DNA from: Patescibacteria group bacterium
GTDB taxonomy: Bacteria; Patescibacteriota; Patescibacteriia; 2-01-FULL-39-33
Length of the DNA stretch: 32,000 bases
Reading direction: 5' to 3'
NCBI GenBank assembly: GCA_041662745.1
Contig: JBAZRV010000002.1
Coordinates: 1 to 32,000, forward strand
The translations under genes were made by a program, and so were the position numbers. Below are positions 5,092-24,714 of this stretch, piece by piece. Numbering within the stretch: the first letter of the stretch is position 1; each line of letters starts with the position of its first letter. Below the pieces are notes generated by a model. That model was not told where the DNA came from. It saw only the letters and a program-made list of their open reading frames with translations, and made no database searches.

Positions 5092-6423
5092 CGTTCCGAT
5101 GATTCTTGTTACCTCACTGATATGTTTAATAGGCAGTAATTTCAGATTTCCCGAGGGCGCATCCGGCCGAGCGGGAACAATGGCTTGAACATAACCAAGT
5201 CGCTGGGCCTCCTTTAACCGGCGAGCTAATTGCGGCACGCTGCGGATTTCTCCGGACAGTCCCACTTCGCCTAAAATCAAGGTTTTATTGGGTAATGATT
5301 TTTCCGTAAAAGCGGAAATAACCGCCATAGCCACCGCCAGATCGGCCGGCGGTTCTTTTATTTTTAGGCCGCCGGCGACATTAAGATAAACGTCCTGGTT
5401 GCTTAGATTAACTTTATTGTATTTGCCGATGACCGCCAGAAGCATCTGTAAGCGATTCAAGTCAAAACCGGTAGTTTTGCGTTGCGGATAGCCGAAAAAG
5501 GTTTTGGCGGTTAGTGATTGCACCTCTACGAGAAACGGCCTGGTGCCCTCAAGAACCATGGTAGCGCTGATGCCCGGATTGCCCGATGACAATTCCTTAT
5601 CGGCAAAAACACCGGCCGGATCGCTGACTTCTTTTAGTCCGCTACCGGTCATTTCAAAGACGCCGATTTCACCCACGGCGCCGAAACGGTTTTTAACGGT
5701 GCGTAAAATCTTAAAATTATTCTGCGCGTCATTCTCTAAATACATTACCGTATCCACTAAGTGTTCCAAGGTTTTGGGGCCGGCGACTTGGCCGTCCTTG
5801 GTAACATGACCGATAACTAAAACAGCAATATTATTTGTTTTGGCCAGCGACATTAATTTGGCGGTGCAGGCCGTGATCTGCCCCACGTTGCCGGCCGCGC
5901 CGGGGGAGTCGGCCGTGTAAACCGTCTGAATGGAGTCAACTATCAATAGTTGCGGTTTAAGCGCGGTGGCCGTGGCGATGACGGTGTCAATATCGGTTTG
6001 CGGCAAAAATTTTAATTTGCTCAAATCGTTGGTTAAACGTTCAGCCCGCATTTTTATTTGCGTTGCCGATTCCTCGCCGGAAACGTATAGAACAGAATCA
6101 AGCCTGTCGATCAGCTGCAAGGCCAAAGTGGATTTGCCGATTCCCGGATCCCCGCCCAAAAGCATTAAAGCGCCGTTAATAATGCCTCCGCCTAAAACGC
6201 GGTCAACCTCGTTTAAGCCGGTAGGGGTTCTGGTTTCTTTGCCTCCGATTATGGTTGATAAATTAATAGTTTTTTCCGCTCGAGCCGTATTAGCCGAATT
6301 TTCTGATTTTTTCAGTTCTTCCGTTAGTGTGCCCCAAGCGCCACAATCAAGACAGCGCCCTTGCCATTTAGGATATTGGGCGCCGCATTTGGAGCAGGAA
6401 AAAATCGTTTGTGTTTTTGCCAT
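5083..6423 (-). CDS. radA: DNA repair/recombination protein RadA (Sms)
   Basis: The 446-aa product has a C4 zinc finger (CSKCGAQYPKWQGRCLDCGAWG), Walker A GGDPGIGKST and the KNRFG motif. It ends in a Lon-protease-like C-terminal domain. Confidence 0.93.
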   Translation of the reverse strand: MAKTQTIFSCSKCGAQYPKWQGRCLDCGAWGTLTEELKKSENSANTARAEKTINLSTIIGGKETRTPTGLNEVDRVLGGGIINGALMLLGGDPGIGKSTLALQLIDRLDSVLYVSGEESATQIKMRAERLTNDLSKLKFLPQTDIDTVIATATALKPQLLIVDSIQTVYTADSPGAAGNVGQITACTAKLMSLAKTNNIAVLVIGHVTKDGQVAGPKTLEHLVDTVMYLENDAQNNFKILRTVKNRFGAVGEIGVFEMTGSGLKEVSDPAGVFADKELSSGNPGISATMVLEGTRPFLVEVQSLTAKTFFGYPQRKTTGFDLNRLQMLLAVIGKYNKVNLSNQDVYLNVAGGLKIKEPPADLAVAMAVISAFTEKSLPNKTLILGEVGLSGEIRSVPQLARRLKEAQRLGYVQAIVPARPDAPSGNLKLLPIKHISEVTRIIGTLL

Positions 6424-6426
6424 TTT

Positions 6427-7461
6427 TTATGGTAGTTTAGGCGGCTTGCCCATGTCTATGTGCCAACAGTTATTAACGGGCTCATCAATTACGCGTATCT
6501 CAGGGTAAATTATATTATTTATGGTCACATTATTTAAGACATAGCCAGGCTGCCCGTCATAGTAAAATGCTGTTTTTTGATTCTTGATTAAACCGCGGAA
6601 ATAGGCATTAGTTGTGTTGTTTCTGGGATAATCCAGCGCTGTGCCGTTGGCATGATTTGAACCGGTATCTTGCGGTCGATAAGCTGAAGTTGGTTGGGCG
6701 TCGGTAATGCTTGAGATGCTATTGGCCAATGATGATGTTTGCGGCTTTAATCCTTGCATATTGCCAGTAGCAGCATTGGAGCCGGATGGTACTTTATTGA
6801 CACTCTCCATGGTTCCTATGCCATTGTTATTAGTCGCATTATTTGATGAGTAATAGACAACCGGTTCAAATTCTTGGCCGGTTATAATCGTCAGACTTGG
6901 GCTAATAATACTAATTAACGTGTAAGATAGCAAGGCGAGAGCCAGTCCGGCTAAAGCTGAAAAAATAACGGACTTGGCTTCGGTGATTTTGCCGCTGTCA
7001 CCGCGCGCCAAAAGCCACTTGAATCCGCCCCACATTACCATAATCGTTGCTAATATGCCAACCGTCCCCAATAGCAGTGTGTACCAAGTATTAATGTAAT
7101 CAGGAAAAAGATCGGCGTTAACCGGAATTTTAGCGTCAGCCGTAAAGAGACCGCCGATAGCAACATTGGGAGTAAAGGTAAAAGATGCCTTACTATTCTG
7201 ATTAGTGGTTTTTGTTAAGCCAACGTTTACAGTGGTATCGGAAGGCATTGATTGAGTACTTTCCGCCGCTCCATTGGGATAGGTGGTGAAGCATTGGTGA
7301 ATACAACTACTGAGTTGTTCTTGAGTCCAATCCAATCCCGAATCGTAACAATTAGCAAGGCATTGTTGGTATTCAGCTTTAGTATCGGCCAAAACCGCCG
7401 CCGGCAGCAACAAATTAAAAGCCAGAGTAAGCATTAAAAATATTTTTAGCAAGTATCTCAT
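6427..7461 (-). CDS. Secreted/membrane protein: signal peptide, Cys-rich N-domain, VirB2/TrbC-like T4SS-pilin two-TM domain, C-terminal LAS/M15-like peptidase motifs
   Basis: The 344-aa product starts with a signal peptide, followed by CLANC...CIHQC. The two-TM block WYTLLLGTVGILATIMVMWGGFKWLLARGDSGKITEAKSVIFSALAGLALALLSYTLISII matches the CPR T4SS-pilin pattern. The C-terminus carries SAYR, SNHANGTALD (SxHxxGxAxD, i.e. H-x6-D) and WHID. Confidence 0.85.
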   Translation of the reverse strand: MRYLLKIFLMLTLAFNLLLPAAVLADTKAEYQQCLANCYDSGLDWTQEQLSSCIHQCFTTYPNGAAESTQSMPSDTTVNVGLTKTTNQNSKASFTFTPNVAIGGLFTADAKIPVNADLFPDYINTWYTLLLGTVGILATIMVMWGGFKWLLARGDSGKITEAKSVIFSALAGLALALLSYTLISIISPSLTIITGQEFEPVVYYSSNNATNNNGIGTMESVNKVPSGSNAATGNMQGLKPQTSSLANSISSITDAQPTSAYRPQDTGSNHANGTALDYPRNNTTNAYFRGLIKNQKTAFYYDGQPGYVLNNVTINNIIYPEIRVIDEPVNNCWHIDMGKPPKLP

Positions 7462-7480
7462 AATTAATATAAAAAATAGT

Positions 7481-8536
7481 TCAATTTTTTATAATTTCCC
7501 ATTCTACCGCATCCCGACTAATATTAATTAAGCGTAGAGGCGCATCCATACCGTCTAATTGATAAATTCCTCCCACTACCAGATCAGGGGATATTTTTAA
7601 AGTGTCCATCATCAACATTTCATCAGCGGCCAGGGAATTGGTTGATATACTGAATCTATCATCGGATAATTGATGCAGTTCTAAAGGGCTTAGACTTAGA
7701 TTAGTTAAGGTGTTTCCTAGATTAACGAGACTATCTATTTCTTGGGTTGATAGTAGTTGATATTGCATGCAAGTTCCCATAAGTCCGGCGCTGCTGGGCA
7801 GAGTGCCGGCGTCTTCACTGTTGCAATAAGGCTTATAAATATCAAAACCTGCTTTTTTTAGTTTATTTCTGACGTTTTGTTCGGCTTCAGGCAGAATTTG
7901 CTTGTTGAGTTGGTTTTGAGATAATTTTCTCAATTCTGAATCGGTGAGTGGTTTATATTCACGCACTATAGGTTCTCTGCCCTCAAGATTTATGTCGCTT
8001 AGATTGGGGTTAATAATGGATATTAAAGTGTAAGACAATAAAGCCAAAGCTAATCCGGCCAAAGCCGAAAAAATCATTGATTTGGCATCAGTGATTTTGC
8101 CGCTGTCACCGCGGGCTAAGAGCCATTTGAATCCGGCCCACATTATCATGATGGTGGCCACGATGCCAATAATGCCAAGCATCAAGTCATACCAGGCCTT
8201 AATATAATTACCCAATAAATTTTCGTTGACATTGCCGCCGGTAAAACTGCCCAGGGGGATATTAAGGATTAAATCGCCGGATTGGCCCTTGTTGGCGACC
8301 GCGTCGAATGCTGCTAATTGCGCTTTTTGCGCCGCTTCATAGTCGCTTTTACAAAGAGGAAAACCGTCAGTGGCCTGCTGTTGGCAGGCTGCATCGCCGG
8401 GTTCGCAATTATCAAGCTGGTCTTGCTGTTGTTTCAGGCAATCATCAACGTAATTCGCCCTAACTGTGGTTTGGGGAAGAAACAGAAAATAAACAATTAA
8501 GGCGATAATTCCTAAGGTTGTGATTTTTTTACTCAT
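7481..8536 (-). CDS. Secreted/membrane protein with VirB2/TrbC-like T4SS-pilin two-TM domain (paralog of 6427-7461)
   Basis: The 351-aa product has a signal peptide and a 4-Cys N-domain. Its block WYDLMLGIIGIVATIMIMWAGFKWLLARGDSGKITDAKSMIFSALAGLALALLSYTLISII is nearly identical to that of the neighbouring gene. The C-terminal domain of about 170 aa is unrelated and unassigned. Confidence 0.85.
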   Translation of the reverse strand: MSKKITTLGIIALIVYFLFLPQTTVRANYVDDCLKQQQDQLDNCEPGDAACQQQATDGFPLCKSDYEAAQKAQLAAFDAVANKGQSGDLILNIPLGSFTGGNVNENLLGNYIKAWYDLMLGIIGIVATIMIMWAGFKWLLARGDSGKITDAKSMIFSALAGLALALLSYTLISIINPNLSDINLEGREPIVREYKPLTDSELRKLSQNQLNKQILPEAEQNVRNKLKKAGFDIYKPYCNSEDAGTLPSSAGLMGTCMQYQLLSTQEIDSLVNLGNTLTNLSLSPLELHQLSDDRFSISTNSLAADEMLMMDTLKISPDLVVGGIYQLDGMDAPLRLINISRDAVEWEIIKN

Positions 8537-10627: not shown

Positions 10628-10656
10628 TTTTCAAAATGGCCAAAATATTGTATAAT
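10628..10656 (+). promoter_or_regulatory. Putative promoter of the pilus-associated operon
   Basis: TATAAT lies at 10651-10656 and is immediately preceded by TG. A weak -35 TTTTCA lies at 10628-10633 with a 17-nt spacer. Confidence 0.45.
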
Positions 10657-10673
10657 TAATTGTAGTTAATGCT

Positions 10674-10711
10674 TGTGGATAAGTCATGGATTATTCGGCG
10701 TTTATCCATGA
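10674..10711 (+). promoter_or_regulatory. Cluster of DnaA-box-like motifs / hairpin in the 5' leader
   Basis: TGTGGATAAG lies at 10674-10683; its first 9 nt are the reverse complement of TTATCCACA. Two related boxes are CATGGATTA (10685-10693) and TTATCCATG (10702-10710). An 8-bp inverted repeat pairs TCATGGAT (10684-10691) with ATCCATGA (10704-10711). Confidence 0.5.
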
Positions 10712-10732
10712 GCAAATTAAGGTGACAAAAAT

Positions 10733-13375
10733 ATGCTGTTAAAACAGCCCACTAAATTTTTTCGGGTCGCGATTTCGGTCGTGGGCGGCCTGTCTTTGTT
10801 TTTAATTCCTTTAATCCCTGTTTCGGCTTGGACCGGCCCGACAGACGATCCGCCCAATGGCAACGTGGCGGCACCCCTTAATCAATCAACGCTTTTTAGC
10901 GGTGATGTAATTTCTGGCAGGTGGAATACATTAATGATCACCCCTGACGGTTGCAGTGCCGCCTCCCTGGTTGGTTGGAACGGAACTAAGTTGGTTTGTA
11001 CTTCAACTTTGCCGTCAGCCGGAGGAATCAGCGGTACGATTAATTACGTATCCAAATTTACCAGCGCTAATACGCTTGGCAATTCTTCTATTTTTGATAA
11101 TGGCAACGTCGGCATAAATGATTCGGCTCCGGCTGCCACCTTGGTGGTAAGAAAGCCTACCAGCGTTGTTACCGCTACTTGGTTGCGGGTTTTTGATGAT
11201 TCCCAAAATCCCGAAATTCAATTGCAGTATTCCAGTGATGCTAACGGGCACTGGGGTATTTATAATAATCAGACCGAAGATGCTTTCAGGATTTGGGGCG
11301 GCGGCAATGATCGTTTGGCGATCAAGCAGAACGGCAATGTCGGCATCGGCACAAATAATCCTCTTGTTAAATTAGACGTAGTTGGCGTAGTCAGTTCCAC
11401 CGGTTTGCAAGTTAACGGTGCAATAACCGCAAGCAGCTTAGTTGGTAGCGGGAGTCGCTGTCTGCAAGCCAGCGCTACCGGTCAAATTTCCGCTACGGCC
11501 TCGGCTTGCGGTACGGGAGGCAGTACCGGTGGCGGAGTCAATTATGGACTGGCCGGCCAAACCGCTTATTATCCGGCTAATGGCACTAATGTTACCGGTA
11601 CCTCGGCCTTGATTATTGATAATGCCAACGGCCGAGTAGCTGTCGGTACGGCTACATCGGCTAATCATCGCTTTTTGATTAAATCGGCTAATGTACTGGG
11701 TTATGCCATGAAAATATTGGATTCCAGCGGCAGCATACCGCTTTTATCTGTCGTTGATTTTGGCACAGCGGCTTTTAATGCTATGGTGGGCATTGGTGTT
11801 GATACTCCCGCTGAAATGCTAGAAGTAGCGGCTCCTGTTAGCGCTAAAACAGCCAGAGTGCGTATTACTGATAAGGTCAATAATCCGGAACTACAATTGC
11901 AATACGGCATCGGTAGTGAACATTGGTCTGTGTATACGCGCAATACGGAGATCGCCGGTCAACCTGGTACGGCAGACAGTCTAAATATTTGGGGGGGCAC
12001 ATTGGATAGGATGACTATTAATCAATGGGGAATGGTGGGTATAAATAATACTGATCCGCAAAAACGATTACATATAGGTCCCGGTCCGACATATTATCCG
12101 GCGTCGTCATTGGCTATTACGGAAAGTCCGGCCAGTATTTGGAATCCCGGCGCTGATTCAGGAATTGAATTTAGTGTTATGGGAGCCGGTAACTATAGAA
12201 ATGAGGCCGGGGCTATAGGGTATACTGCGTCATTGACGAATGAAGATTCAAGGGGGTTTGATTTTTATGTTGGCAGAACCGATCCTCCCACCGTTCATGG
12301 TTGGGGCGATGGCATACCGGCAATGAAAATCAGGAGTGAAAATGCTTATGTTGGTATTGGAACTTGGATGCCATTATCATCGTTGGTTGTTTCTAATCAG
12401 TCAATAATAACTAAGCGTTCGGAGATTGCCAATAAAGACGTTTTCGTTGATATTAATACTAATACCACTAACTACTCTAACGGTTTGAAATGGTCTGTTG
12501 GCGTGACTACAAGTTCTCAAGACTTATGGTGGCTATATCGTCCAGCTGAAACTTCCGATTTAGTGTTGGCTACCGGTGATAATAACCCCTCCAACAGGCT
12601 GATAACTTTTTTATCTAATGGTAAAATAGGCATCGGGACTAACAGTCCGGTATCTACGTTTAATGTTGTAGGCGATAATGCCTCAGGGTATGGCATCACT
12701 CAGCCGGATGGCGCTACTGCCTATATTAAAAACACCCACATTACCTCCGGTTTGGAATATTCTTTCGGTTTAATCGGCGAGGGTTATACGGCTGGTATCC
12801 TGGGCTTATCTTCCAGCGCATCAGGCGTTGGTATTTTTGGCCTTAGTTCTGCCGGCACTGCAATTCAGGGAAGAACAGAAGGTGGGACTGCCGTTTCCGG
12901 CGATGCTTTAGATAGCAATGGTTTTGCAGGATATTTTAGCGGCGGTAAGGGCGTAGCTATTTCCGCTGGCAGTAATGTTAATCCCGGTTTGCAATTAAGC
13001 GGGGGTGTCAATGGTACTTTTATGCAACTTGATCGCGGCGGCGTTTATAATGGTTTATTCGGGGTGGCCGGAGCCAGTGCTCAACTTATTAATAATTCAG
13101 CGGGAGGCGATATTGTTTTAAGAAGTAATGGCGGAAAATTGATTTTAGGAACCGCTTACGCGTCGCCGGTTATTACGATTAGCGGTACTAATGCGGGAAT
13201 AGGAGTCACTTCACCGACTCAAAAATTACAAGTTGATGGCACAGTTAGGGCAACCGGCTATATGGCAGGTTCGGCAACGGGCATAAGCAGGACAGTCACG
13301 GTCAAAGGCAGAACCAATAGCAATTGCAATTTAATTTTTACTAACGGTCTTTTGACGAGCAGTAATTGCCCCTAA
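10733..13375 (+). CDS. Large secreted repeat protein (tail-fibre-like G-[IV]-G-T-x-x-P modules)
   Basis: The 880-aa product has a signal peptide or anchor followed by AWTGPTDDPPNGNVAAPLN. Eight copies of a motif like NVGIGTNNPLVKLDVVG are present. Two longer repeated modules contain NPE[IL]QLQY...HW..Y......IWGG..DR[LM].I.Q.G.VGI. An AAGGTG RBS sits 8 nt upstream. Confidence 0.85.
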   Translation: MLLKQPTKFFRVAISVVGGLSLFLIPLIPVSAWTGPTDDPPNGNVAAPLNQSTLFSGDVISGRWNTLMITPDGCSAASLVGWNGTKLVCTSTLPSAGGISGTINYVSKFTSANTLGNSSIFDNGNVGINDSAPAATLVVRKPTSVVTATWLRVFDDSQNPEIQLQYSSDANGHWGIYNNQTEDAFRIWGGGNDRLAIKQNGNVGIGTNNPLVKLDVVGVVSSTGLQVNGAITASSLVGSGSRCLQASATGQISATASACGTGGSTGGGVNYGLAGQTAYYPANGTNVTGTSALIIDNANGRVAVGTATSANHRFLIKSANVLGYAMKILDSSGSIPLLSVVDFGTAAFNAMVGIGVDTPAEMLEVAAPVSAKTARVRITDKVNNPELQLQYGIGSEHWSVYTRNTEIAGQPGTADSLNIWGGTLDRMTINQWGMVGINNTDPQKRLHIGPGPTYYPASSLAITESPASIWNPGADSGIEFSVMGAGNYRNEAGAIGYTASLTNEDSRGFDFYVGRTDPPTVHGWGDGIPAMKIRSENAYVGIGTWMPLSSLVVSNQSIITKRSEIANKDVFVDINTNTTNYSNGLKWSVGVTTSSQDLWWLYRPAETSDLVLATGDNNPSNRLITFLSNGKIGIGTNSPVSTFNVVGDNASGYGITQPDGATAYIKNTHITSGLEYSFGLIGEGYTAGILGLSSSASGVGIFGLSSAGTAIQGRTEGGTAVSGDALDSNGFAGYFSGGKGVAISAGSNVNPGLQLSGGVNGTFMQLDRGGVYNGLFGVAGASAQLINNSAGGDIVLRSNGGKLILGTAYASPVITISGTNAGIGVTSPTQKLQVDGTVRATGYMAGSATGISRTVTVKGRTNSNCNLIFTNGLLTSSNCP

Positions 13376-15121: not shown

Positions 15122-16231
15122 ATGTTCGGATCAAAGAAAAACAATTATCTCGGCGTCGATCTGGGATCTTCCTCGATTAAAGTTGTAGAATTAGCCAATT
15201 ATTCCGGCCGGCCACGTTTGGTCACTTACGGTTTTACAGAAAAAAGCCCGACTAATATTTCGGAATCCGGAATAATTTCCGATGTTGAAGAAACTGCTGC
15301 GATTCTTAGGGAAGTCTGTAGAAAATCAAAGGTTACGGCTAATAAGGCCGTAGCCGCCCTGCCTAATTTTTCTGTTTTTACTTCTATTTTGACTTTGCCG
15401 TCATTATCCAAAAAAGATCTGGCTGCGGCAATAAGCTGGGAAGCCAAGAAGATTATTCCCATGCCGCTGGAGGAAATAATTTTAGATTGGAAAATCGTAG
15501 AAGAGTTTGAAGTTGGCGGGGGCGGTGCGGATAAATTGCCGGAATTAAGCCAAGAAGCCAATCCTTTGAAAAAGATATTTTCTAAACCGAAGAAAAACGT
15601 CCGAGTGCTTTTGACTGGAGCCAGCAAACAGCTAATCAAAAAGTACATTGATATTTTTGCTAAATGCGGTTTGACTTTGCTCAGTTTGGAGACTGAGAGT
15701 TTTGCTTTGATCCGCTCGCTTTTGGGCGATGATAAGTCAACAGTAATGATTGTTGATATGGGCGCGGCTACTTCCAGTTTAGTGGTGGTTTCCAAGGGGG
15801 TGCCGGTACTGAATCGATCGTTGGAACTGGGCGGTCAAGCTTTAACCAAGGCAATTTCCATGGCCCTGAATGTTAATTTGGATCGCGCCGAGCAGTTTAA
15901 ACAGGATTTGTCATTAGATTCGGAAACAAGCGAAAACTCTTTGCCCCAGACAGTAGAAAAAGCTTTTGCTCCGATTTTAAATGAAATCAGCTATACTATT
16001 AATTTATATCAGGATAGTAATAATACTAAGATTGATAAGTTGATTTTAACCGGCGGCACGGCTCTCTTAGGGCATTTATCGGGTTATTTATCAAATAATT
16101 TTAATATTAATACGGTTATCGGCGATCCTTGGGCGCGGGTAGTTTATCCGGTTGATTTGAAGCCCATTTTAGATCGCGTCGGAGCGCGTTTTGCCGTTCC
16201 TGTCGGCTTAGCTATGCGAGAAATAGAATAG
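15122..16231 (+). CDS. pilM: Type IV pilus assembly ATPase-fold protein PilM
   Basis: The 369-aa product has an actin-like N-terminus (LGVDLGSSSIKVVEL). Its size and its position directly upstream of the pilN/pilO-like genes fit PilM. Confidence 0.88.
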   Translation: MFGSKKNNYLGVDLGSSSIKVVELANYSGRPRLVTYGFTEKSPTNISESGIISDVEETAAILREVCRKSKVTANKAVAALPNFSVFTSILTLPSLSKKDLAAAISWEAKKIIPMPLEEIILDWKIVEEFEVGGGGADKLPELSQEANPLKKIFSKPKKNVRVLLTGASKQLIKKYIDIFAKCGLTLLSLETESFALIRSLLGDDKSTVMIVDMGAATSSLVVVSKGVPVLNRSLELGGQALTKAISMALNVNLDRAEQFKQDLSLDSETSENSLPQTVEKAFAPILNEISYTINLYQDSNNTKIDKLILTGGTALLGHLSGYLSNNFNINTVIGDPWARVVYPVDLKPILDRVGARFAVPVGLAMREIE

Positions 16232-18135: not shown

Positions 18136-18465
18136 ATGGATAAAACAGAAAAAAAATCATCTAAACGCTTATATTTTTTGCTGATCATCTTGATCGTCAT
18201 TCTTTACGGCGCCTTGGCCTATTGGCAAAAATTTTGGCCGTTTTCTTTATTACAGGAGCAAAGCGTGGTCAATTTGGGCAGTCAATTCGTTAGAATAAAT
18301 CGCGATATTTTTCCCGACGTCAAGCAGTTGAATCAATGCAATGATTGGCCGATTGTCGGGGTTGAGTTGAGTCCTGATCGCGGCAATCCGTTTAAACGGA
18401 AGACGGCGGATGTTAATGCTATTGTTAATACCTCAACCGCGCAATGTCGCGAATTGGGGGAATAA
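18136..18465 (+). CDS. Small membrane-anchored protein, possibly PilP-like
   Basis: The 109-aa product has an N-terminal TM helix. Its DRGNPF motif is reminiscent of the R-[DN]-P-F motif of PilP-type proteins. It lies between pilO and pilB. Confidence 0.6.
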   Translation: MDKTEKKSSKRLYFLLIILIVILYGALAYWQKFWPFSLLQEQSVVNLGSQFVRINRDIFPDVKQLNQCNDWPIVGVELSPDRGNPFKRKTADVNAIVNTSTAQCRELGE

Positions 18466-18470
18466 AATTT

Positions 18471-20213
18471 ATGCCCGATATCCAATACAATGAGAGAATA
18501 AAAAACTATTTATCCAGCCATAATTTAGTGAATCCTTCTATTTTAGAAGAGGTTCTTAGCGTGGCGAACAAAAGCAAAAAAATGATTGAAGAGGAGCTGG
18601 TGGATCGCAATGTTTTTGGTCGCAATGAATTGCTTAAGGTAAAAGGCGAGGTATTCAATTTGCCCGTAGCCGATCTGGCGGCCAGTCAGATTAAACCGGA
18701 GATTCTTAATTTATTGTCTCAGAAAGTAGCGGAGAATTATAAAGCCATCGTGTTTGCTCAGGAGGGTAAAAAGGTCAGTGTCGGCTTGGTTGATCCAGGG
18801 GATTTCATGGCTAATGAAGCGATTGAATTTTGGGCCAAAACATCCGGTTTTCAAATTAGTTATTTCGTGATTTTATTGGAAGATTTTCGTCGTTTTATTA
18901 AAAGTTATAGCGGTTTTAGTAAGGAAATAGGCACTGCTTTGCAATCAGCAGAAGAGAAATATGCGGAAAAAGAAGAGGGTATAGTATTGGAAAGCGGAGC
19001 CGCTTTGGAAGAAAAAATTAAAGCCGCTCCCGTAGCTAAAATTGTTTCCGTTATTATTCGTCATGGCATTGAGGGTAATGCCTCGGATATTCATATTGAG
19101 CCTGGGCGCAATGAAAGCCGAGTGCGTTATCGCGTGGACGGAATTTTGCATACCTCGTTGACTTTACCGGCCTACATCCATAACGCCGTAGTGTCGCGTA
19201 TTAAGGTTATGGCTAATCTGAAGCTGGATGAAACACGCCTGCCTCAAGACGGCCGTATTCGGTCGCAAATAGACGGCCAGGAAGTTGATTTGCGTATTTC
19301 TGTTCTGCCCATGCTTAATTCGGAGAAGGTGGTCATTCGCGTTTTAGATACCTCCGCCGGCGTTCCCAATTTGGCTCAGCTTGGTTTTCTTGACAACGAA
19401 ATAGAGATTTTAAATCAGAACGCCAATAAACCGTTTGGCTTGATACTTCTGACCGGTCCGACCGGTTCAGGTAAAACGACGACTCTATATTCAATTTTAA
19501 ATCAAATTAAAACGGAAAACAGCAATGTTACCACCTTGGAAGATCCGATAGAGTATTCTATCGCCGGTATCAATCAATCTCAAATTAATCCGGATGTGGG
19601 GTTTACCTTCGCTTCCGGTTTGAGAGCGATTTTGCGCCAAGATCCCAATATTATTATGGTGGGAGAAATCCGTGATAGCGAAACGGCCGAGCTGGTCATC
19701 CATGCCGGCTTGACTGGCCATTTAGTCTTTTCTACTTTGCATACAAACAACGCTTGGGGCGCTATTCCGCGCATGATTGATATGAAAGCGGAGCCCTTTT
19801 TACTCTCTTCCACTCTTAATTTGATTATGGCGCAACGTTTGGTTAGGAAGGTTTGTCCCAGTTGCCGTCAGGAAGTGTCGTTGCCCGGACCATTGCTTAA
19901 GCAAGTGGAGAGCGAAATTAAACAAATTCCGCCAGAATTGCTTAAGCGGTATGTGCCGCAAGTAAGATTTTATCGAGCGGTCGGTTGCGATCTTTGTGGC
20001 CAGAGCGGTTTTTCTGGACGTACGGTTATAAGTGAAATTATTGCTATCACGCCGGAATTGCGAGATATTATTGCTAAAGAAAATTTTTCTAACGAAGTGG
20101 TTATGGCGGAATTGAAAAAACAGAATTTTGTCACTTTAATGCAGGACGGCATAATGAAATCAATGATGGGCCTGACCACCATTGAAGAAGTGATGCAAGT
20201 AACACAAATGTAA
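18471..20213 (+). CDS. pilB: Type IV pilus assembly ATPase PilB (GspE family)
   Basis: All catalytic motifs are canonical: Walker A GPTGSGKTTT, Asp box EDPIEY, Walker B IIMVGEIRD and His box TGHLVFSTLHTN. A tetracysteine motif CPSC...CDLC and an N-terminal MshEN-type domain are present. The ATG at 18471 follows a GGGGG run and avoids overlap. An alternative ATG lies at 18444. Confidence 0.92.
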   Translation: MPDIQYNERIKNYLSSHNLVNPSILEEVLSVANKSKKMIEEELVDRNVFGRNELLKVKGEVFNLPVADLAASQIKPEILNLLSQKVAENYKAIVFAQEGKKVSVGLVDPGDFMANEAIEFWAKTSGFQISYFVILLEDFRRFIKSYSGFSKEIGTALQSAEEKYAEKEEGIVLESGAALEEKIKAAPVAKIVSVIIRHGIEGNASDIHIEPGRNESRVRYRVDGILHTSLTLPAYIHNAVVSRIKVMANLKLDETRLPQDGRIRSQIDGQEVDLRISVLPMLNSEKVVIRVLDTSAGVPNLAQLGFLDNEIEILNQNANKPFGLILLTGPTGSGKTTTLYSILNQIKTENSNVTTLEDPIEYSIAGINQSQINPDVGFTFASGLRAILRQDPNIIMVGEIRDSETAELVIHAGLTGHLVFSTLHTNNAWGAIPRMIDMKAEPFLLSSTLNLIMAQRLVRKVCPSCRQEVSLPGPLLKQVESEIKQIPPELLKRYVPQVRFYRAVGCDLCGQSGFSGRTVISEIIAITPELRDIIAKENFSNEVVMAELKKQNFVTLMQDGIMKSMMGLTTIEEVMQVTQM

Positions 20214-20241: not shown

Positions 20242-20619
20242 ATGAAAGACAAGAAAATAAACATCCTCATCGTGGAAGACGATGTTTTCCTGGCCGATTT
20301 GTATAAGACCAAATTTGCCCTGGAAGGGTTTAAGGTAGTCGTGGCCTATGACGGAGAAAAGGGCTGGGAAGCGGCGAGGAAGGGTTCGCCGGATATTATT
20401 TTATTGGACTTGGTTTTACCTAAGATGAGCGGTTTTGATATTCTTAAATCACTTAAGGCCGATAGTAAATTGGAAAAAATTCCGGTAATTCTTTTGACTA
20501 ATTTAAGTCAAAAATCAGACGTAGAAAAGGGATTAAAGTTGGGTGCCAAAGATTATTTGATCAAGGCTCACTTTATGCCGTCGGAAGTGGTGGAGAAAAT
20601 CAAAAAGTTAATTGCGTAA
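20242..20619 (+). CDS. Single-domain response regulator (CheY/PilH-like receiver)
   Basis: The 125-aa product has ILIVEDD, a phospho-acceptor context (ILLDLVLPKMSG), LTN and a conserved Lys in YLIK. It has no output domain. Confidence 0.9.
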   Translation: MKDKKINILIVEDDVFLADLYKTKFALEGFKVVVAYDGEKGWEAARKGSPDIILLDLVLPKMSGFDILKSLKADSKLEKIPVILLTNLSQKSDVEKGLKLGAKDYLIKAHFMPSEVVEKIKKLIA

Positions 20620-20621
20620 TT

Positions 20622-21686
20622 ATGGATACCAGTCAGGATTTATTTTTGAAACAGGTATTAACCGAAGGGATAACTGCCAGTGCTTCTGATTGGCATTTTA
20701 CCGTCGGTCATTTTCCGATTATAAAAGTTAATGGCGATTTACGTTATCTGGAAGACAAGGGTGTTATTACGGCAGAATTCATGATTAAGCTGGCTGAGGC
20801 GTTATTGACGCCGACGCAACAGCAAAAGTTAGCCAAGGATAAAGAGATAATATTAACCTATAATTTTGATAAGAATCTTCGCTTTAAAATAAATTTGTTT
20901 TATCAGAAGAGCTTTCTATCCGCTACTTTCCGTTATGTGCCGGTACAGATTCCTGCTTTGAGTCAATTGGGTATGCCGGCAACAGTAAGGGAGTTAATTA
21001 AATTAAATCGAGGCCTGGTTATTGTTTCCGGTGCCTTCGGTTCCGGCCGCACCTCTACCGCCGCCTCCATGATTGAGGAAATAAATATCAGTCGCAAAAA
21101 ATACATCATCACCATTGAAGATCCGATTGAGTATGTTTTCGCCAATAAAAAAAGCGTCATTGAACAGCGTCAGGTGGGCCAAGATACTAATAGTTATGTC
21201 GATGCTCTGCGTTATTTCCAAGAAGAGAGCGGTGATGTGCTGTTTTTAGAACAATTAAACAGCGCTTCTATCATCCCGCCGGTTTTAGAGATTGCTCGGG
21301 GCAGCGCTTTAGTGATTACCACTATGGCTGCCGATACGTGCGCCAGATCCTTAACCGCTATTCTTGATTATTTTCCCGCCTTTGATCAGGAACGCATCCG
21401 TGATTTGTTGTCCGGTGCCTTGAAGGCGGTAGTTTGCCAGAAACTTCTGCCTAAGATTGGCGGCGGCGTAGTTCCGATTTGTGAAATCCTTTTAGTTAAT
21501 GATACGGTCAGGGCGACTATTGCCAGCGGGAATCTTAATCAGTTGGACAATATTATCGCCACCTCTCGCCGTGAAGGCATGGTATCTTTTAATCAAGCTC
21601 TGAACGAGGCGTTAAGGGCTAATTTGATCACTTACGAAGAGGCGCAGGAGCATTCTCCTGATCCTAATGGTTTGGGGAAAAATTAA
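20622..21686 (+). CDS. pilT: PilT-like retraction ATPase homolog with degenerate catalytic motifs
   Basis: The 354-aa product has PilT length and order, and it retains the Asp box IEDPIEY. Walker A reads GAFGSGRTST, with Arg encoded by CGC at 21048-21050 where Lys is expected. The Walker B region reads DVLFLEQLN. The His-box position reads RGSALVITTMAADT and contains no His. Confidence 0.85.
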   Translation: MDTSQDLFLKQVLTEGITASASDWHFTVGHFPIIKVNGDLRYLEDKGVITAEFMIKLAEALLTPTQQQKLAKDKEIILTYNFDKNLRFKINLFYQKSFLSATFRYVPVQIPALSQLGMPATVRELIKLNRGLVIVSGAFGSGRTSTAASMIEEINISRKKYIITIEDPIEYVFANKKSVIEQRQVGQDTNSYVDALRYFQEESGDVLFLEQLNSASIIPPVLEIARGSALVITTMAADTCARSLTAILDYFPAFDQERIRDLLSGALKAVVCQKLLPKIGGGVVPICEILLVNDTVRATIASGNLNQLDNIIATSRREGMVSFNQALNEALRANLITYEEAQEHSPDPNGLGKN

Positions 21687-21698
21687 TTTTTATTAATC

Positions 21699-22910
21699 AT
21701 GCCGATATACAAATACAAAACTAAAGATCGCCGAGGCAATATTGTTGAAGCGGCCATGGATGCGGTTTCTACCGAGGCCGTAGCCAATTTTTTATTGGAT
21801 AAAAAATTGGCCATCATTGACATTCGGCCACAAGCCGCCTTAAGCGTCTGGTATTGGCAGAAACTTTTATTTTTTAAGCGGGTCAGCAATAAAGATTTGG
21901 TTATATTTTTTCGTCAATTGGCGGTAATGGTTGAAGCTAATATCCCACTGGTACGCGGTTTGCGTATCTTAGTCCGGCAAACCAAGAATGATTATTTGCG
22001 TAATGTAATTGACAAGGTGGCGGACGAAGTGGAGGGCGGATCAAGTTTTTCTTCCGCCTTAGAGGCCTATCCCGATGTTTTCACTAAGTTTTATGTCAAT
22101 ATTATGCGTTCCGGTGAGACGTCAGGCCGCTTATCGGAAGTGATGAATTATTTGGCCGATCAAAAAGAAAAGGATTATGATTTGGAATCCAAGGTTAGGG
22201 GGGCGATGATTTATCCGGCCATGATTGTTTTAGTTTTGGGCGTAGTGGGTTTTATCGTCGTAGCCTTTGTTATTCCCGGCATTACTAAAATGTTAGTGGA
22301 ATCAGGCGCTCAGATACCGTTAATTACCAGGTTAATGATGAATTTAGCTAATTTTTTAAGGAATTTTTGGTGGTTAGTGGTGCTTTCAGTTGCTGGTTTG
22401 CTAATAATATTTTTTGTCGGTCGGCAGACGCCTGAAGGCAGACGTTTTCTGGATTGGGTAAAACTTAAAATTCCTATTTTTGGCGCTATTTTTAAGGATA
22501 TTTATATTGTGCGTTTTGCTCAGAGTTTTGCCACCCTGATTAAAGGCGGAGTTCCCATCGCCCAGGGCTTAGCCGTGGTGAAGGAGGTTGTTGACAATAA
22601 ATTATTTGAAGAAATGATTAATGATGCAATTGAAGGCGTTAATGAAGGCAATCAGATTTCTGAGAGTTTGGCCGCCAGTCCTTATTTGCCGCAAATCGTG
22701 GCTAATATGATCAGTATTGGAGAAGAATCGGGAAAATTGGAAGAAGTATTAGATAAGGCTGCCGATTTTTATTCCAAAGAAATAGATAATTCGGTTAGGA
22801 ATCTATCCAATCTGATTGAACCGATAATTATGATTGTTTTGGGAATTGCAGTGGCATTGTTTGTTATTGCAGTCATCTTGCCAATGTGGCAGTTGTCGTC
22901 TGCTTTTTAA
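21699..22910 (+). CDS. pilC: Type IV pilus platform protein PilC (GspF family)
   Basis: The 403-aa product has two GspF-type repeats with three TM segments, typical of PilC. It follows the pilB and pilT-like genes. Confidence 0.9.
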   Translation: MPIYKYKTKDRRGNIVEAAMDAVSTEAVANFLLDKKLAIIDIRPQAALSVWYWQKLLFFKRVSNKDLVIFFRQLAVMVEANIPLVRGLRILVRQTKNDYLRNVIDKVADEVEGGSSFSSALEAYPDVFTKFYVNIMRSGETSGRLSEVMNYLADQKEKDYDLESKVRGAMIYPAMIVLVLGVVGFIVVAFVIPGITKMLVESGAQIPLITRLMMNLANFLRNFWWLVVLSVAGLLIIFFVGRQTPEGRRFLDWVKLKIPIFGAIFKDIYIVRFAQSFATLIKGGVPIAQGLAVVKEVVDNKLFEEMINDAIEGVNEGNQISESLAASPYLPQIVANMISIGEESGKLEEVLDKAADFYSKEIDNSVRNLSNLIEPIIMIVLGIAVALFVIAVILPMWQLSSAF

Positions 22911-22953
22911 AGTTTGCAAATTGCTGGTTTTTCTGTTTTTTTATCATTTTTTG

Positions 22954-22962
22954 TGCTATAAT
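22954..22962 (+). promoter_or_regulatory. Extended -10 promoter element TGcTATAAT for the pilin gene
   Basis: TGCTATAAT lies at 22954-22962 in the 162-bp gap after pilC. Confidence 0.5.
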
Positions 22963-22978
22963 TATGTTATAAAATAGC

Positions 22979-22988
22979 TGTGGATAAG
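22979..22988 (+). promoter_or_regulatory. TGTGGATAAG motif (DnaA-box consensus), second copy
   Basis: This 10-mer is identical to 10674-10683. It lies 16 nt after the -10, versus 17 nt at the other promoter. Confidence 0.5.
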
Positions 22989-23050
22989 CTAAATAACCCA
23001 TTTAATAAGGGAAAGGTCGAGGAAAAAGCTTAAGAGACAGTTGAATTTTA

Positions 23051-23066
23051 TTCACTCGCGAGTGAA
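23051..23066. promoter_or_regulatory. Perfect 16-bp palindrome TTCACTCGCGAGTGAA in the pilin leader
   Basis: Read directly from the sequence. It ends 6 nt before the ATG at 23073 and 31 nt before the ATG at 23098. Confidence 0.4.
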
Positions 23067-23072
23067 CTTAAA

Positions 23073-23507
23073 ATGTTAAATATAAATTATAAACCTATGA
23101 ATAAGAAAGGTTTTACTTTGATTGAATTGCTGGTGGTTATCGCCATTATCGGCATTTTGTCTTCAGTTGCCATTGTTTATTTGCAAGATGCCAGAAATAA
23201 AGCTAATGACGCCAAGGTTCAATCTAATATTGCCACCGCCTCCACTCAAACGGAAATTGCCAGGGCCAATGGAGAAAGCGTTGATTCCGACACTTATAGA
23301 GATTCTGTTATCGCAAAGTTAGGCACTTATCCTTGTACTGCCGCCGGTAAGGTTAGTTGGACCGCTTCACCTTCCACTACGGCCTCTGTTGTTGCTTATT
23401 ATGCCCAACTTTGTACCAGCGATTCCTATTTCTGCGCTGATACCAACGGCTTTAGAGGATTGAATACGGCCGTTCCTGCCGTAGACGGACAATGCAATGC
23501 TAATTAA
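23073..23507 (+). CDS. pilA: Type IV pilin (major pilin candidate)
   Basis: The class III signal reads MNKKG|FTLIELLVVIAIIGILSSVAIV, with Gly at -1, Phe at +1 and Glu at +5. Four C-terminal Cys are present. The gene has its own promoter and a strong terminator. The biologically likelier start is the ATG at 23098, which gives a 5-aa leader. The longest ORF starts at 23073. Confidence 0.9.
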   Translation: MLNINYKPMNKKGFTLIELLVVIAIIGILSSVAIVYLQDARNKANDAKVQSNIATASTQTEIARANGESVDSDTYRDSVIAKLGTYPCTAAGKVSWTASPSTTASVVAYYAQLCTSDSYFCADTNGFRGLNTAVPAVDGQCNAN

Positions 23508-23517
23508 GATTTGAATT

Positions 23518-23549
23518 AAACCCTCCCGTTAAATCGGGAGGGTTTTTTT
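23518..23549 (+). terminator. Rho-independent terminator after the pilin gene
   Basis: The stem pairs AAACCCTCCCG with CGGGAGGGTTT around the loop TTAAAT. A T-run follows. Confidence 0.85.
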
Positions 23550-23590: not shown

Positions 23591-23974
23591 ATGCGACGAC
23601 TATCTTATAAAATCATTGTCTATTCCATGCTGCTTATTTTGGGGCTGATTTTTACCGGTTTGGCCGTTTGGTTTTATAGCGGTCAAGCGAGGGATTTTGA
23701 GCGTCTTAAAGGCCTAAAAGTCTGGCAGGATATTATGGCTGAATACTTTTCCAAGTACAATACTTACCAAGTCATTAATTGCAATCCGGGCATGGTCATC
23801 AGCCAGTGTTTTCCCGATCGGGCCACCCCGCTTGATCCTATCAATAATGGCAATTATAAGTATCTCGTCGGCACTTTGGGCGAAACCGATTACGAGATTA
23901 ATTTTTATTTAGAGCGCGGTATCGGCGGCCTTAGGGCCGGCGGTTATACTTGGACTAAAAACGGCGTGAAATGA
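23591..23974 (+). CDS. Membrane-anchored pilin/pseudopilin-like protein lacking a prepilin cleavage motif
   Basis: The 127-aa product has an N-terminal TM helix without G-F-T-L-x-E. Its C-terminal pattern LDPINNGNYKYLVGTLGETDYEINFYLE resembles the GspG-type DPWGxxYxY...Y/FDL core. Its stop overlaps the pilD start as ATGA at 23971-23974. Confidence 0.7.
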   Translation: MRRLSYKIIVYSMLLILGLIFTGLAVWFYSGQARDFERLKGLKVWQDIMAEYFSKYNTYQVINCNPGMVISQCFPDRATPLDPINNGNYKYLVGTLGETDYEINFYLERGIGGLRAGGYTWTKNGVK

Positions 23975-24714
23975 TTTTATTTATTTTCATTATCGGCTTG
24001 ATTGTCGGTAGTTTCCTCAATGTCGTTATTTGGCGACTGCATTCAGGCGAACCGATTGTTTTTGGTCGATCGCAGTGCCCGCGCTGCCAAGCTAAGCTGC
24101 GACCGAAAGATTTGATACCGTTACTGAGTTTTATTTTTCTGCAGGGCAGGTGTCGTTATTGTCGGCAACCGATTTCTTGGCAATATCCTTTAGTGGAATT
24201 TGCTACCGGCCTGCTCTTTCTCCTGGCTTATAGCTGCCATCCCCAGCCATTAATTTTTTTTAGAGACGCAGTATTAATTTCTATTTTAATCGTTATTTTT
24301 GTTTACGACTTGCGCTGGCAGTTGATTCCCGATCAGATAACTATCCCCGCCATTATTTTATTGTTTATATTCAGCTTGCTTTTAGGCAGCAGTTTATGGT
24401 TGTTGATCTTTTCTGTCTTAGTTGGTTTTGGTTTTTTCGGCTTGCAATACCTGGTTTCTTCCGGGCGTTGGATCGGCGGCGGTGATTTGCGTTTAGGCGC
24501 TTTGATGGGGGCGACTTTGGGCTGGCCTCTTCTGATAGTCGCCTTATTAATCGCTTATATTATCGGCGCCGCGGTTTCTATGATATTATTGATTTTAGGT
24601 AAAGCCAAAGCTAAGACGCCCATCGCCTTTGGTACTTTTTTGGCCTTGGGCACTTTAATCGCTTTGTTTTGGGGTGAAAGAATCATCAGTTGGTATCTTG
24701 GTCTATTATTATAA
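23971..24714 (+). CDS. pilD: Prepilin peptidase / N-methyltransferase PilD (peptidase A24)
   Basis: The 247-aa polytopic product has the Cys motif CPRC...CRYC. The catalytic Asp contexts are VYDLRW and GGGDLRLG. Confidence 0.92.
   Translation: MILFIFIIGLIVGSFLNVVIWRLHSGEPIVFGRSQCPRCQAKLRPKDLIPLLSFIFLQGRCRYCRQPISWQYPLVEFATGLLFLLAYSCHPQPLIFFRDAVLISILIVIFVYDLRWQLIPDQITIPAIILLFIFSLLLGSSLWLLIFSVLVGFGFFGLQYLVSSGRWIGGGDLRLGALMGATLGWPLLIVALLIAYIIGAAVSMILLILGKAKAKTPIAFGTFLALGTLIALFWGERIISWYLGLLL

Follow-up and report, generated by a model that had tools for sequence, protein, structure and literature searches.

The Patescibacteria, or candidate phyla radiation (CPR), comprise a sizeable part of bacterial diversity and do not grow on their own in culture; they need type IV pili for host finding and DNA uptake and, to our knowledge, essentially nothing is known of their gene regulation. 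The question raised by the locus considered here is how such pili are controlled. The window, i.e. the whole stretch of 32,000 nucleotides that was analysed (contig JBAZRV010000002.1), was identified by Pfam domain assignment as a type IV pilus locus of an uncultured CPR bacterium, the closest genomes recovered in a search for PilB relatives being named Candidatus Buchananbacteria. Two pilus transcription units are present, a machinery operon of about 12 kb and the monocistronic major pilin gene, and the promoter of each is followed by the same 10-mer, TGTGGATAAG, whose core 9-mer TGTGGATAA (the box) is the exact reverse complement of the DnaA-box consensus TTATCCACA. Comparison with related genomes indicates that the box is a real, conserved cis-regulatory element common to both pilus promoters of a CPR clade. 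As to the factor that recognises it, and to whether it does so in DNA or in mRNA, a DnaA operator is the tentative preference, and an element acting at the RNA level is its main, and more doubtful, rival.

The box and the two pilus promoters

The features on which the argument turns are as follows.

10628..10656, plus strand: sigma-70-type promoter of the machinery operon, TTTTCA-17-TATAAT, -10 at 10651-10656
10674..10683, plus strand: box copy 1, TGTGGATAAG, with the core 9-mer at 10674-10682
22952..22962, plus strand: pilin promoter with extended -10 TGTGCTATAAT, TRTGnTATAAT-like in every lineage
22979..22988, plus strand: box copy 2, TGTGGATAAG, at the pilin site
10659..10687, minus strand: promoter-like site ATGACT-17-TACAAT, the box being the first 9 nt of its spacer

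A search of both strands of the window found exactly two exact copies of TGTGGATAAG, the first 17 nt downstream of a perfect TATAAT (10651-10656) and ahead of a gene for an 880-amino-acid protein, the second 16 nt downstream of a perfect TATAAT (22957-22962) and ahead of the major pilin gene, where the hexamer is preceded by TGTGC, making an extended -10 of the Gram-positive type. The positions and spacings given in the initial annotation are thereby confirmed, as is its statement that the core is a perfect inverted DnaA box at both sites. In dinucleotide shuffles of the window the 10-mer occurred on average 0.05 times, and none of 100 shuffles reached two copies. Nine matches to the 9-mer with one mismatch were found in the window compared to 7.8 expected, which is the chance level, so that only the two exact copies are special. 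Pairwise comparison of the operon and pilin sites revealed nothing in common beyond TATAAT and the box; att-site (attachment-site) or direct-repeat scars of an inserted pilus island were considered and ruled out, as these are the only two elements shared. The operon leader of the window also holds two degenerate copies, CATGGATTA (10686-10694) and TTATCCATG (10702-10710).

Conservation in related lineages

Orthologous pilus loci were gathered through relatives of PilB in genomes and metagenomes and through homologues of the 880-amino-acid protein, PilC and PilM, and represent about nine lineages of Buchananbacteria/Falkowbacteria-type CPR with identities to the window of 58-95% for PilB, 53-61% for PilC and 66-75% for PilM. 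At the operon site the box or a one-base variant of it was present in all six lineages where the site is visible, as TGTGGATAA in the window, L001, L006, L008, L002, L143, L144 and L145, and as TGTTGATAA in the Falkowbacteria-type L146. In all nine operon-site sequences a perfect TATAAT stands 17-18 nt before the box, whereas at the pilin site the distance ranges from 11 to 19 nt among lineages; the constant offset from the -10 noted in the initial annotation thus holds for the operon site across lineages and fails for the pilin site. At the latter the box is exact or one base off in eight of nine lineages, the 9-mers being:

Window, L001, L006, L003, L132, L140, L141: TGTGGATAA, exact
L002: TGTGGAAAA
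L144: TGTGGACAA
L145: TGTGAATAA
L146: TGTGGATAT
L139: CGTGGATAA

Across 386 kb of related, non-redundant DNA the exact 9-mer was found 16 times at the two sites and only twice elsewhere, both stray copies lying within genes on the operon strand, at about the number expected from base composition. The script scored 15 of the 16 site copies as intergenic, the L144 operon-site copy at 3048 being scored as coding via a spurious open reading frame (ORF). The leader flanks and the remainder of the leaders diverge among lineages while the box persists at both orthologous sites, and the conserved unit is the 9-mer TGTGGATAA only. The base preceding it is usually a pyrimidine, and the tenth base is G at most sites and A, T or C at others. 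The 'GC(T)' prefix remarked on in the initial annotation is present in the window, but in relatives the GC is replaced by GG, CC, AG, TC or AT; L001 and L006, the closest of them, have neither the degenerate copies nor the hairpin that these can form, and their leaders hold unrelated inserts of 80-110 nt. The prefix and the degenerate copies, not being conserved, were accordingly rejected as parts of the motif. Since the box is neither frequent nor randomly placed in the 386 kb and is kept at both sites in diverged genomes, the element is real, and the proposal that the two promoter-proximal copies mark shared control and are not due to chance is strongly borne out by the shuffles and by conservation alike.

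Short tandem repeats in non-coding DNA were observed beside two of the sites. CCTATGG units occur in the L008 operon leader (5510-5545), and GAGTTCC/GAGTTAC and CTGACTTT units lie upstream of the L003 pilin promoter (12900-13010).

An overlapping divergent promoter at the operon site

Alignment of the operon sites revealed, on the minus strand of L002 and L143-L146, a near-consensus TTGACT-17-TAYAAT promoter which, according to the gene maps, aims at clpB or lemA. It is interleaved with the operon promoter at the following positions.

L002, 1666-1723: divergent promoter and operon promoter, interleaved
L143, 3883-3940: the same
L144, 3013-3070: the same
L145, 5554-5611: the same
L146, 2123-2180: the same

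The box, TTATCCACA on the minus strand, forms the first nine bases of the spacer of this divergent promoter in all five lineages, which to judge from the alignment is a classic position for a repressor. In the window's group the -35 of the divergent promoter has decayed to ATGACT or ATAACT, and the minus-strand site at 10659..10687 of the window is, by this comparison, a decayed version of the promoter seen in the relatives. A 19-nt stretch, GGTTGTGGATAAGTCAATT, does not vary between L143, L144 and L145 while the adjoining promoter spacer has diverged; the conserved block is longer in these lineages because its AGTCAA part is the -35 of the divergent promoter.

DnaA as the candidate reader of the box

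The reading preferred here, which is tentative, is that the box may be a DnaA operator and that an mRNA hairpin has been built upon the transcribed box. DnaA would be the single most likely identity of the factor. The 9-mer would place both pilus transcription units, the machinery operon and the pilin gene, under one trans-acting factor, and would act on DNA as an operator for a protein binding a single asymmetric 9-bp site, with DnaA as the leading candidate because the box is an exact DnaA-box consensus. At both promoters the bound protein would lie inside the RNA polymerase footprint, roughly from +1 to +20, and would consequently repress initiation or halt elongation at an early stage; in several relatives it would occlude the spacer of the divergent promoter at the operon site as well. 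Pilus output would then track the level of active DnaA, that is, replication status. As the box is predicted to be transcribed, both from the positions of the -10 hexamers and from pairing that takes in bases ahead of it, the mRNA would have evolved around it: in the pilin leader, and also in the window group's operon leader, a segment further downstream pairs with the box to give a 5'-proximal hairpin, whose role is probably to stabilise or tune the message. The comparisons show the motif, its conservation, its placing with respect to the promoters and the compensated RNA complementarity. We infer the binding of a protein to the box, its being DnaA, the sign of the regulation and the role of the hairpin.

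The case for DnaA is principally one of identity. The box agrees with TTATCCACA at 9/9 positions at both window sites and in most relatives, and the conserved block matches it in sequence and in extent. An arbitrary 9-mer would coincide with the DnaA box with a probability of about 1e-5, whereas perhaps one in a hundred conserved regulatory sites is a DnaA site. Any canonical DnaA should moreover bind to a perfect box. Regulators are few in CPR genomes, and in the conserved pilus cluster Pfam assignment and inspection of the proteins revealed no DNA-binding protein, from which it follows that the factor is encoded elsewhere, as DnaA would be. Candidates for a regulator within the cluster were rejected, the small Pfam-negative proteins being membrane-anchored or pilin-like and the response regulator consisting of a receiver domain only. 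Among the six types of variant box, three (TTTTCCACA, TTGTCCACA and TTATTCACA) lie at the two positions that TTWTNCACA, the relaxed E. coli consensus as quoted in PMC10989985, leaves free; TTTTCCACA and TTATTCACA fit that consensus, and TTGTCCACA, TTATCCACG, ATATCCACA and TTATCAACA do not. In both E. coli and B. subtilis, DnaA bound within a promoter or immediately downstream of it is well established as a repressor and roadblock (PMC11317965, PMC2533591).

A number of observations weigh against DnaA. There is no conserved second box either 2-3 bp away or within 30 bp, and neighbouring 9-mers match the DnaA box at a background level of 1-4/9, the exception being the operon site of the window, where a second box TAATCCATG (6/9) across a 2-bp gap gives an E. 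coli-style 'double DnaA box' that is not conserved. E. coli DnaA is found in vivo almost only on double boxes, with only 13 of 32 consensus single boxes occupied (PMC11317965), and B. subtilis DnaA needs clusters of boxes (PMC2533591). The variants TTATCAACA (L146), TTATCCACG (L139) and ATATCCACA (L146) change positions that are invariant in the E. coli consensus, against which the box was scored and which may not be this clade's own. All instances of the box have the same orientation, co-directional with transcription; variants of the pilin-leader box are compensated in the partner strand, as an RNA-level element would predict; and L142 has no box at its pilin promoter. As double or clustered boxes were lacking and binding is only predicted, the element is not filed as an established member of the DnaA regulon. 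The operator proposed in the initial annotation thus stands on a core that is exactly TTATCCACA and on variants half of which fall at free positions, and falls short in having no conserved second box. The suggestion that the degenerate copies are additional DnaA boxes is not upheld: they are lineage-specific, and the inverted one makes better sense as the 3' side of an RNA helix. In the literature searched, no paper was found that links DnaA boxes to pilus promoters or to CPR gene regulation.

A typical DnaA-box cluster was seen in an unrelated virus, where an IMG/VR contig (L149, 3330-3375) carries three tandem boxes, TGTGGATAAGTC TGTGGATAAC T TGTGGATAAGTCAATT, which happen to share the GTC flank of the operon site.

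A bolder and rather doubtful extension is that, in these host-dependent, ultrasmall bacteria with very few transcription factors, DnaA has come to serve as the master switch for type IV pili. If so, a single box at +1 to +20 of both units would tie pilus production inversely to replication initiation, giving a 'search phase / growth phase' switch in which pili serve host attachment and DNA uptake for nucleotides, and the transcribed box in its leader helix might add a second, RNA-level layer.

The box as part of the leader RNA

The main rival to the DnaA operator, which must be regarded as possible though unlikely, is that the box is read in the mRNA and not in DNA, as the conserved 5' strand of a leader structure that is either recognised by an RNA-binding factor (a protein or a small RNA) or acts as a 5'-proximal stem controlling mRNA stability or translation. 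A cis partner would sequester the box in the pilin leader, the box being free in most operon leaders, and a factor would read the 5' strand, whilst the 3' strand need only complement it, as in the overlaps between ribonucleic antiterminator (RAT) sequences and terminators of the Bgl/Sac-type antiterminators. In keeping with this, every box lies on the transcribed strand downstream of the -10, and the variable spacing at the pilin site is readily accommodated. The structures concerned are:

22975..23043, plus strand: pilin-leader helix P1, outer pairs 22975-22981/23037-23043, inner pairs 22985-22990/23027-23032
23045..23074, plus strand: second conserved pilin-leader hairpin, core TTCACTCGCGAGTGAA at 23051-23066, with a U-tract/A-tract extension
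10670..10714, plus strand: operon-leader helix, box strand 10670-10683 pairing with 10701-10714, 14 bp including 3 G.U

In minimum free energy (MFE) folds the same architecture was obtained for the pilin leader of all box-bearing lineages. The box and a few preceding bases form the 5' strand of an imperfect helix, in which G.U pairs are frequent, and the 3' strand comes directly after the AAAGGUCGA loop; in helix P1 of the window the GGA of the box lies in an internal loop and the conserved AAAGGTCGA (23012-23020) in the apical loop. Alignment with MAFFT followed by RNAalifold recovers the second hairpin only, since the 3' strand of the box helix is thrown out of register by the variable loop. 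A register-free test was used instead, in which the most favourable duplex energy of the 15-nt box region with the leader downstream of it was compared with 1000 dinucleotide shuffles of that leader. Complementarity exceeded that of the shuffles for six sequences (p = 0.013-0.041: the window group, L002, L132, L139, L145 and L146) and was not significant for L003 (0.25), L140 (0.36), L141 (0.13) or L144 (0.46). For eight lineages combined, Fisher's p was 7e-5, or 4e-4 with the worst member per lineage. Replacing the L002, L139 and L146 boxes in their pilin leaders by the consensus costs 2.5-3.4 kcal/mol, and the same exchange in L145 costs 0.5; three of the five variants are thus clearly compensated in the partner strand, one marginally and one not at all. 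The last is L144 (18242-18300), whose partner CUUAUCC still complements the consensus GGAUAAG, its own box having mutated to GGACAAC, presumably recently. L142, without the box, is also without the helix, as though both had been lost together. The whole pilin leader of the window is not unusually stable (z = -0.45).

The AAAGGTCGA block (AAAGGUCGA in the RNA) is kept in every pilin leader, namely those of the window, L001, L002, L003, L132 and L139-L146, including the box-less L142. It lies 3-24 nt downstream of the box, always as the apical loop of the box helix, and may serve for protein binding or as a stand-by site for ribosomes. The second hairpin of the pilin leader, YYCACUCG(CG)AGUGRR, has six pairs by RNAalifold, three of which are changed on both sides; U.G pairs in L142 and L144 mark it as RNA structure and not as a DNA palindrome, and as no U-run follows it is not a terminator.

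The operon leader gives a more divided picture. That of the window is stable (MFE -19.6 kcal/mol, z = -2.9; duplex energy p = 0.001 compared with shuffles). The 8-bp hairpin described in the initial annotation (10684-10691/10704-10711) is indeed present, but it competes with the 14-bp box helix for the 3' strand at 10701-10714, and the minimum-energy fold favours the box helix. These two mutually exclusive hairpins, together with the degenerate second box CATGGATTA, are specific to the window genome. In L001, L006 and L008 a closing helix GCUUGUG(GA)/CAYRAGY stands just ahead of the Shine-Dalgarno sequence despite the unrelated inserts (p = 0.01-0.02), and L144 has a variant of its own in which a C-G pair has become G-C (p = 0.06). 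In the operon leaders of L002, L143, L145 and L146 the duplex shuffle test found no RNA partner for the box (p = 0.33-0.86). A compensated helix is therefore supported in the pilin leader, and in the operon leader only for the window's group and L144; the alternative of a 5'-leader RNA element, put forward in the initial annotation, is sustained to the same extent and not for the operon leaders of the four other lineages. Rfam 15 gave no match at gathering scores in the window or four relatives, and permissive Rfam scans of both leaders gave sub-threshold chance matches only.

It is at these partnerless operon sites that the box is best conserved, and for this reason it is concluded that the RNA helix at the pilin gene is real but is not the reason for the conservation of the box. 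A helix strand alone cannot explain an invariant 9-mer across two unrelated leaders and many lineages; the helices are fixed in sequence on the 5' strand only, so something must read the sequence itself. To these points against an RNA-level role may be added the uncompensated change in L144, the coincidence, of the order of 1e-5, that it would make of the exact DnaA-box identity, the failure to match an Rfam family and the ordinary stability of the whole pilin leader. Should the reader be an RNA-binding factor after all, the pilin leader, with its box helix, AAAGGUCGA loop and GC hairpin, would be an undescribed cis-regulatory RNA.

Further alternatives

A second and less likely alternative to DnaA is an operator for another, clade-specific DNA-binding pilus regulator, the box being merely DnaA-box-like. 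The same evidence of position and conservation applies to it as to DnaA, and a protein other than DnaA would account at least equally well for the lack of double or clustered boxes and for the variants at positions critical to DnaA. However, the cluster has no regulator gene linked to it, the sites of most bacterial regulators are dyads or direct repeats of 14-20 bp and not a lone asymmetric 9-mer, and agreement with the DnaA box at 9/9 positions is improbable as a coincidence; DnaA would in any case be expected to compete for the site.

A signal to the elongation complex is improbable. It could be a site for a NusG paralogue resembling the ops (operon polarity suppressor)/JUMPStart element, or a sigma-dependent promoter-proximal pause, and would ensure read-through of the 12-kb operon. 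Such a role would suit an asymmetric motif of 9-12 nt that keeps to the non-template strand, stands in the leaders of genes for surface structures and is variably spaced from the -10. The sequence TGTGG-ATAAG resembles the clade's extended -10, TGTGnTATAAT, and the pilin gene has no Shine-Dalgarno sequence, as is often so for RfaH-dependent genes. Against this, the box has no sequence similarity to ops (GGCGGTAGnnTG), which also disposed of an RfaH ops element proper, the -10-like hexamer is without the critical T at -7, and the pilin gene, being short and monocistronic with its own terminator, needs no antitermination. Chance recurrence or passive hitch-hiking in conserved promoters without any function of its own, for which only the AT-richness of the DNA and the chance-level number of one-mismatch matches speak, can be practically dismissed, as it is contradicted both by the shuffles and by the retention of the box at both sites in many diverged lineages while the flanks change.

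Several known elements were also tried and rejected. A CsrA/RsmA site, which has GGA in a short hairpin's loop and usually a second site over the Shine-Dalgarno sequence, was discarded since the GGA is mostly in a stem, has changed to GAA in L145 and to UGA at the operon site of L146, and since the pilin gene lacks a Shine-Dalgarno sequence. For a sigma-28/SigF-type -10 (GCCGATAA), which would have a -35 (TAAA) at fixed spacing and would not itself be transcribed, box-anchored alignments of the pilin site showed no conserved element at a fixed upstream distance, and the RNA pairing, which includes the box, implies that the box is transcribed. A DNA uptake sequence (DUS) or uptake signal sequence (USS), of which a genome has hundreds to thousands of dispersed copies, was ruled out by the count of only two exact copies outside the two sites in 386 kb, and readings resembling CIRCE (controlling inverted repeat of chaperone expression)/CtsR and Fur sites were ruled out on sequence or architecture. 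In viral contigs the pattern TATAAT-N9-17-GCT-N0-1-GTGGATAA gave at least 120 matches, attributable to chance, and the 17-mer TTGTGGATAAGTCAATT gave eight, which is about the chance number, none of them in a pilus-promoter context.

Organisation of the locus

The genes of the two pilus units and the prepilin peptidase are located as follows, the assignments from PilM onwards being from Pfam.

10719..13375, plus strand: 880-amino-acid gene, first of the pilus operon; Shine-Dalgarno AAGGTGA at 10719-10725, ATG at 10733
15122-16231: PilM gene
18444-20213: PilB gene
20242-20619: response regulator, receiver domain only
20622-21686: PilT gene
21699-22910: PilC gene
23097..23545, plus strand: major pilin gene, 136 amino acids, N_methyl motif, without Shine-Dalgarno; intrinsic terminator at 23518-23545
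23971-24714: prepilin peptidase

The pilus operon runs from the 880-amino-acid gene through PilM, PilB, the response regulator, PilT and PilC to end at 22910, and this order is kept in all related loci. It opens with two Pfam-negative proteins of 880 and 567 amino acids. Several minor pilins and then LigA are also encoded in the window, and the opposite strand carries genes with T4SS_pilin domains as well as radA. The true start of the pilin is the ATG at 23097 (MNKKGFTLIELL), and the longer ORF from 23073 does not give the start; the listed ORF start of PilB is likewise too long, so that this exact PilB had no database record, whereas the 880-amino-acid protein had one. A Shine-Dalgarno sequence before the pilin ATG (23075-23099 in the window) is absent in every lineage, the first gene of the operon having a strong one. 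Neither dnaA nor oriC occurs within the window or the related loci retrieved, and GC skew climbs monotonically along the window.

The first proteins of the operon (10733-10900 in the window, and the L143-L146 orthologues) are of 790-1358 amino acids with no Pfam domain and an N-terminal membrane anchor, which is followed by the motif A-W-x-x-P-x(2-3)-P-P-x-G-N-V-A-x-P-L; they are candidate pilus-associated surface proteins. On the minus strand at 6427-8536, in an operon divergent from the pilus cluster, are two paralogous proteins of about 350 amino acids with the PF18895 T4SS_pilin domain, an arrangement kept in L006, L008 and L145.

Comparison with known systems

The box offers a first concrete and testable handle on how CPR bacteria regulate their genes, and on a link that may exist between replication and pilus production, and a number of known systems may be set beside it. 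Control of a pilin gene by its leader RNA has a precedent in Clostridioides difficile, where a cyclic di-GMP-II riboswitch precedes pilA1. Here too a long, structured 5' untranslated region with conserved helix and loop blocks precedes the major type IV pilin of a monoderm-like bacterium, but there is no Rfam riboswitch match in the pilin leader, no terminator or Shine-Dalgarno-sequestering platform was recognised in it, and a second promoter has the box but not the remaining parts of the leader. Stem-loops at the 5' terminus stabilise mRNAs such as the E. coli ompA and the B. subtilis aprE and ermC leaders, and the pilin helix, which starts a few nucleotides in from the predicted 5' terminus of the mRNA for a very highly expressed surface protein, resembles these. 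Their sequence is not conserved, whereas here the 5' strand is invariant and common to two genes. The ops/JUMPStart element recruits RfaH in the leaders of pilus, capsule and lipopolysaccharide operons, and is likewise a short asymmetric motif of the non-template strand, located in the 5' leaders of long surface-structure operons with variable spacing from the promoter, but the sequence of the box is unrelated to it and the box also precedes a short monocistronic gene.

The E. coli hisL leader, in which 'rDnaA boxes' with two mismatches each were proposed to lie in stem-loops, is a weak precedent for a DnaA-box-like sequence inside a leader stem-loop, as their binding in vitro was not reproduced (PMC10989985); unlike them the box described here is perfect, and its binding is predicted. 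The closest parallel is with the promoters of the DnaA regulon (dnaA, nrdAB, rpoH and mioC in E. coli; dnaA, sda and ywlC in B. subtilis) and with roadblocks in transcribed regions, which share the 9-mer TTATCCACA, its location in or just after the promoter, variation at positions 3 and 5 and the expectation of repression or roadblock (PMC11317965, PMC2533591). The pilus sites differ from these in having a single isolated box that is always co-directional with transcription and is built into an RNA helix, and in that the targets are pilus genes and not replication or nucleotide genes. The exact DnaA-box identity is unusually suggestive, and such a dual embedding of the box, in overlapping promoters and in an mRNA helix, is unusual. 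If it is DnaA that reads the box, the DnaA regulon would extend from replication and nucleotide genes to a surface organelle, and the cell cycle of these episymbionts would be linked to their host-seeking behaviour.

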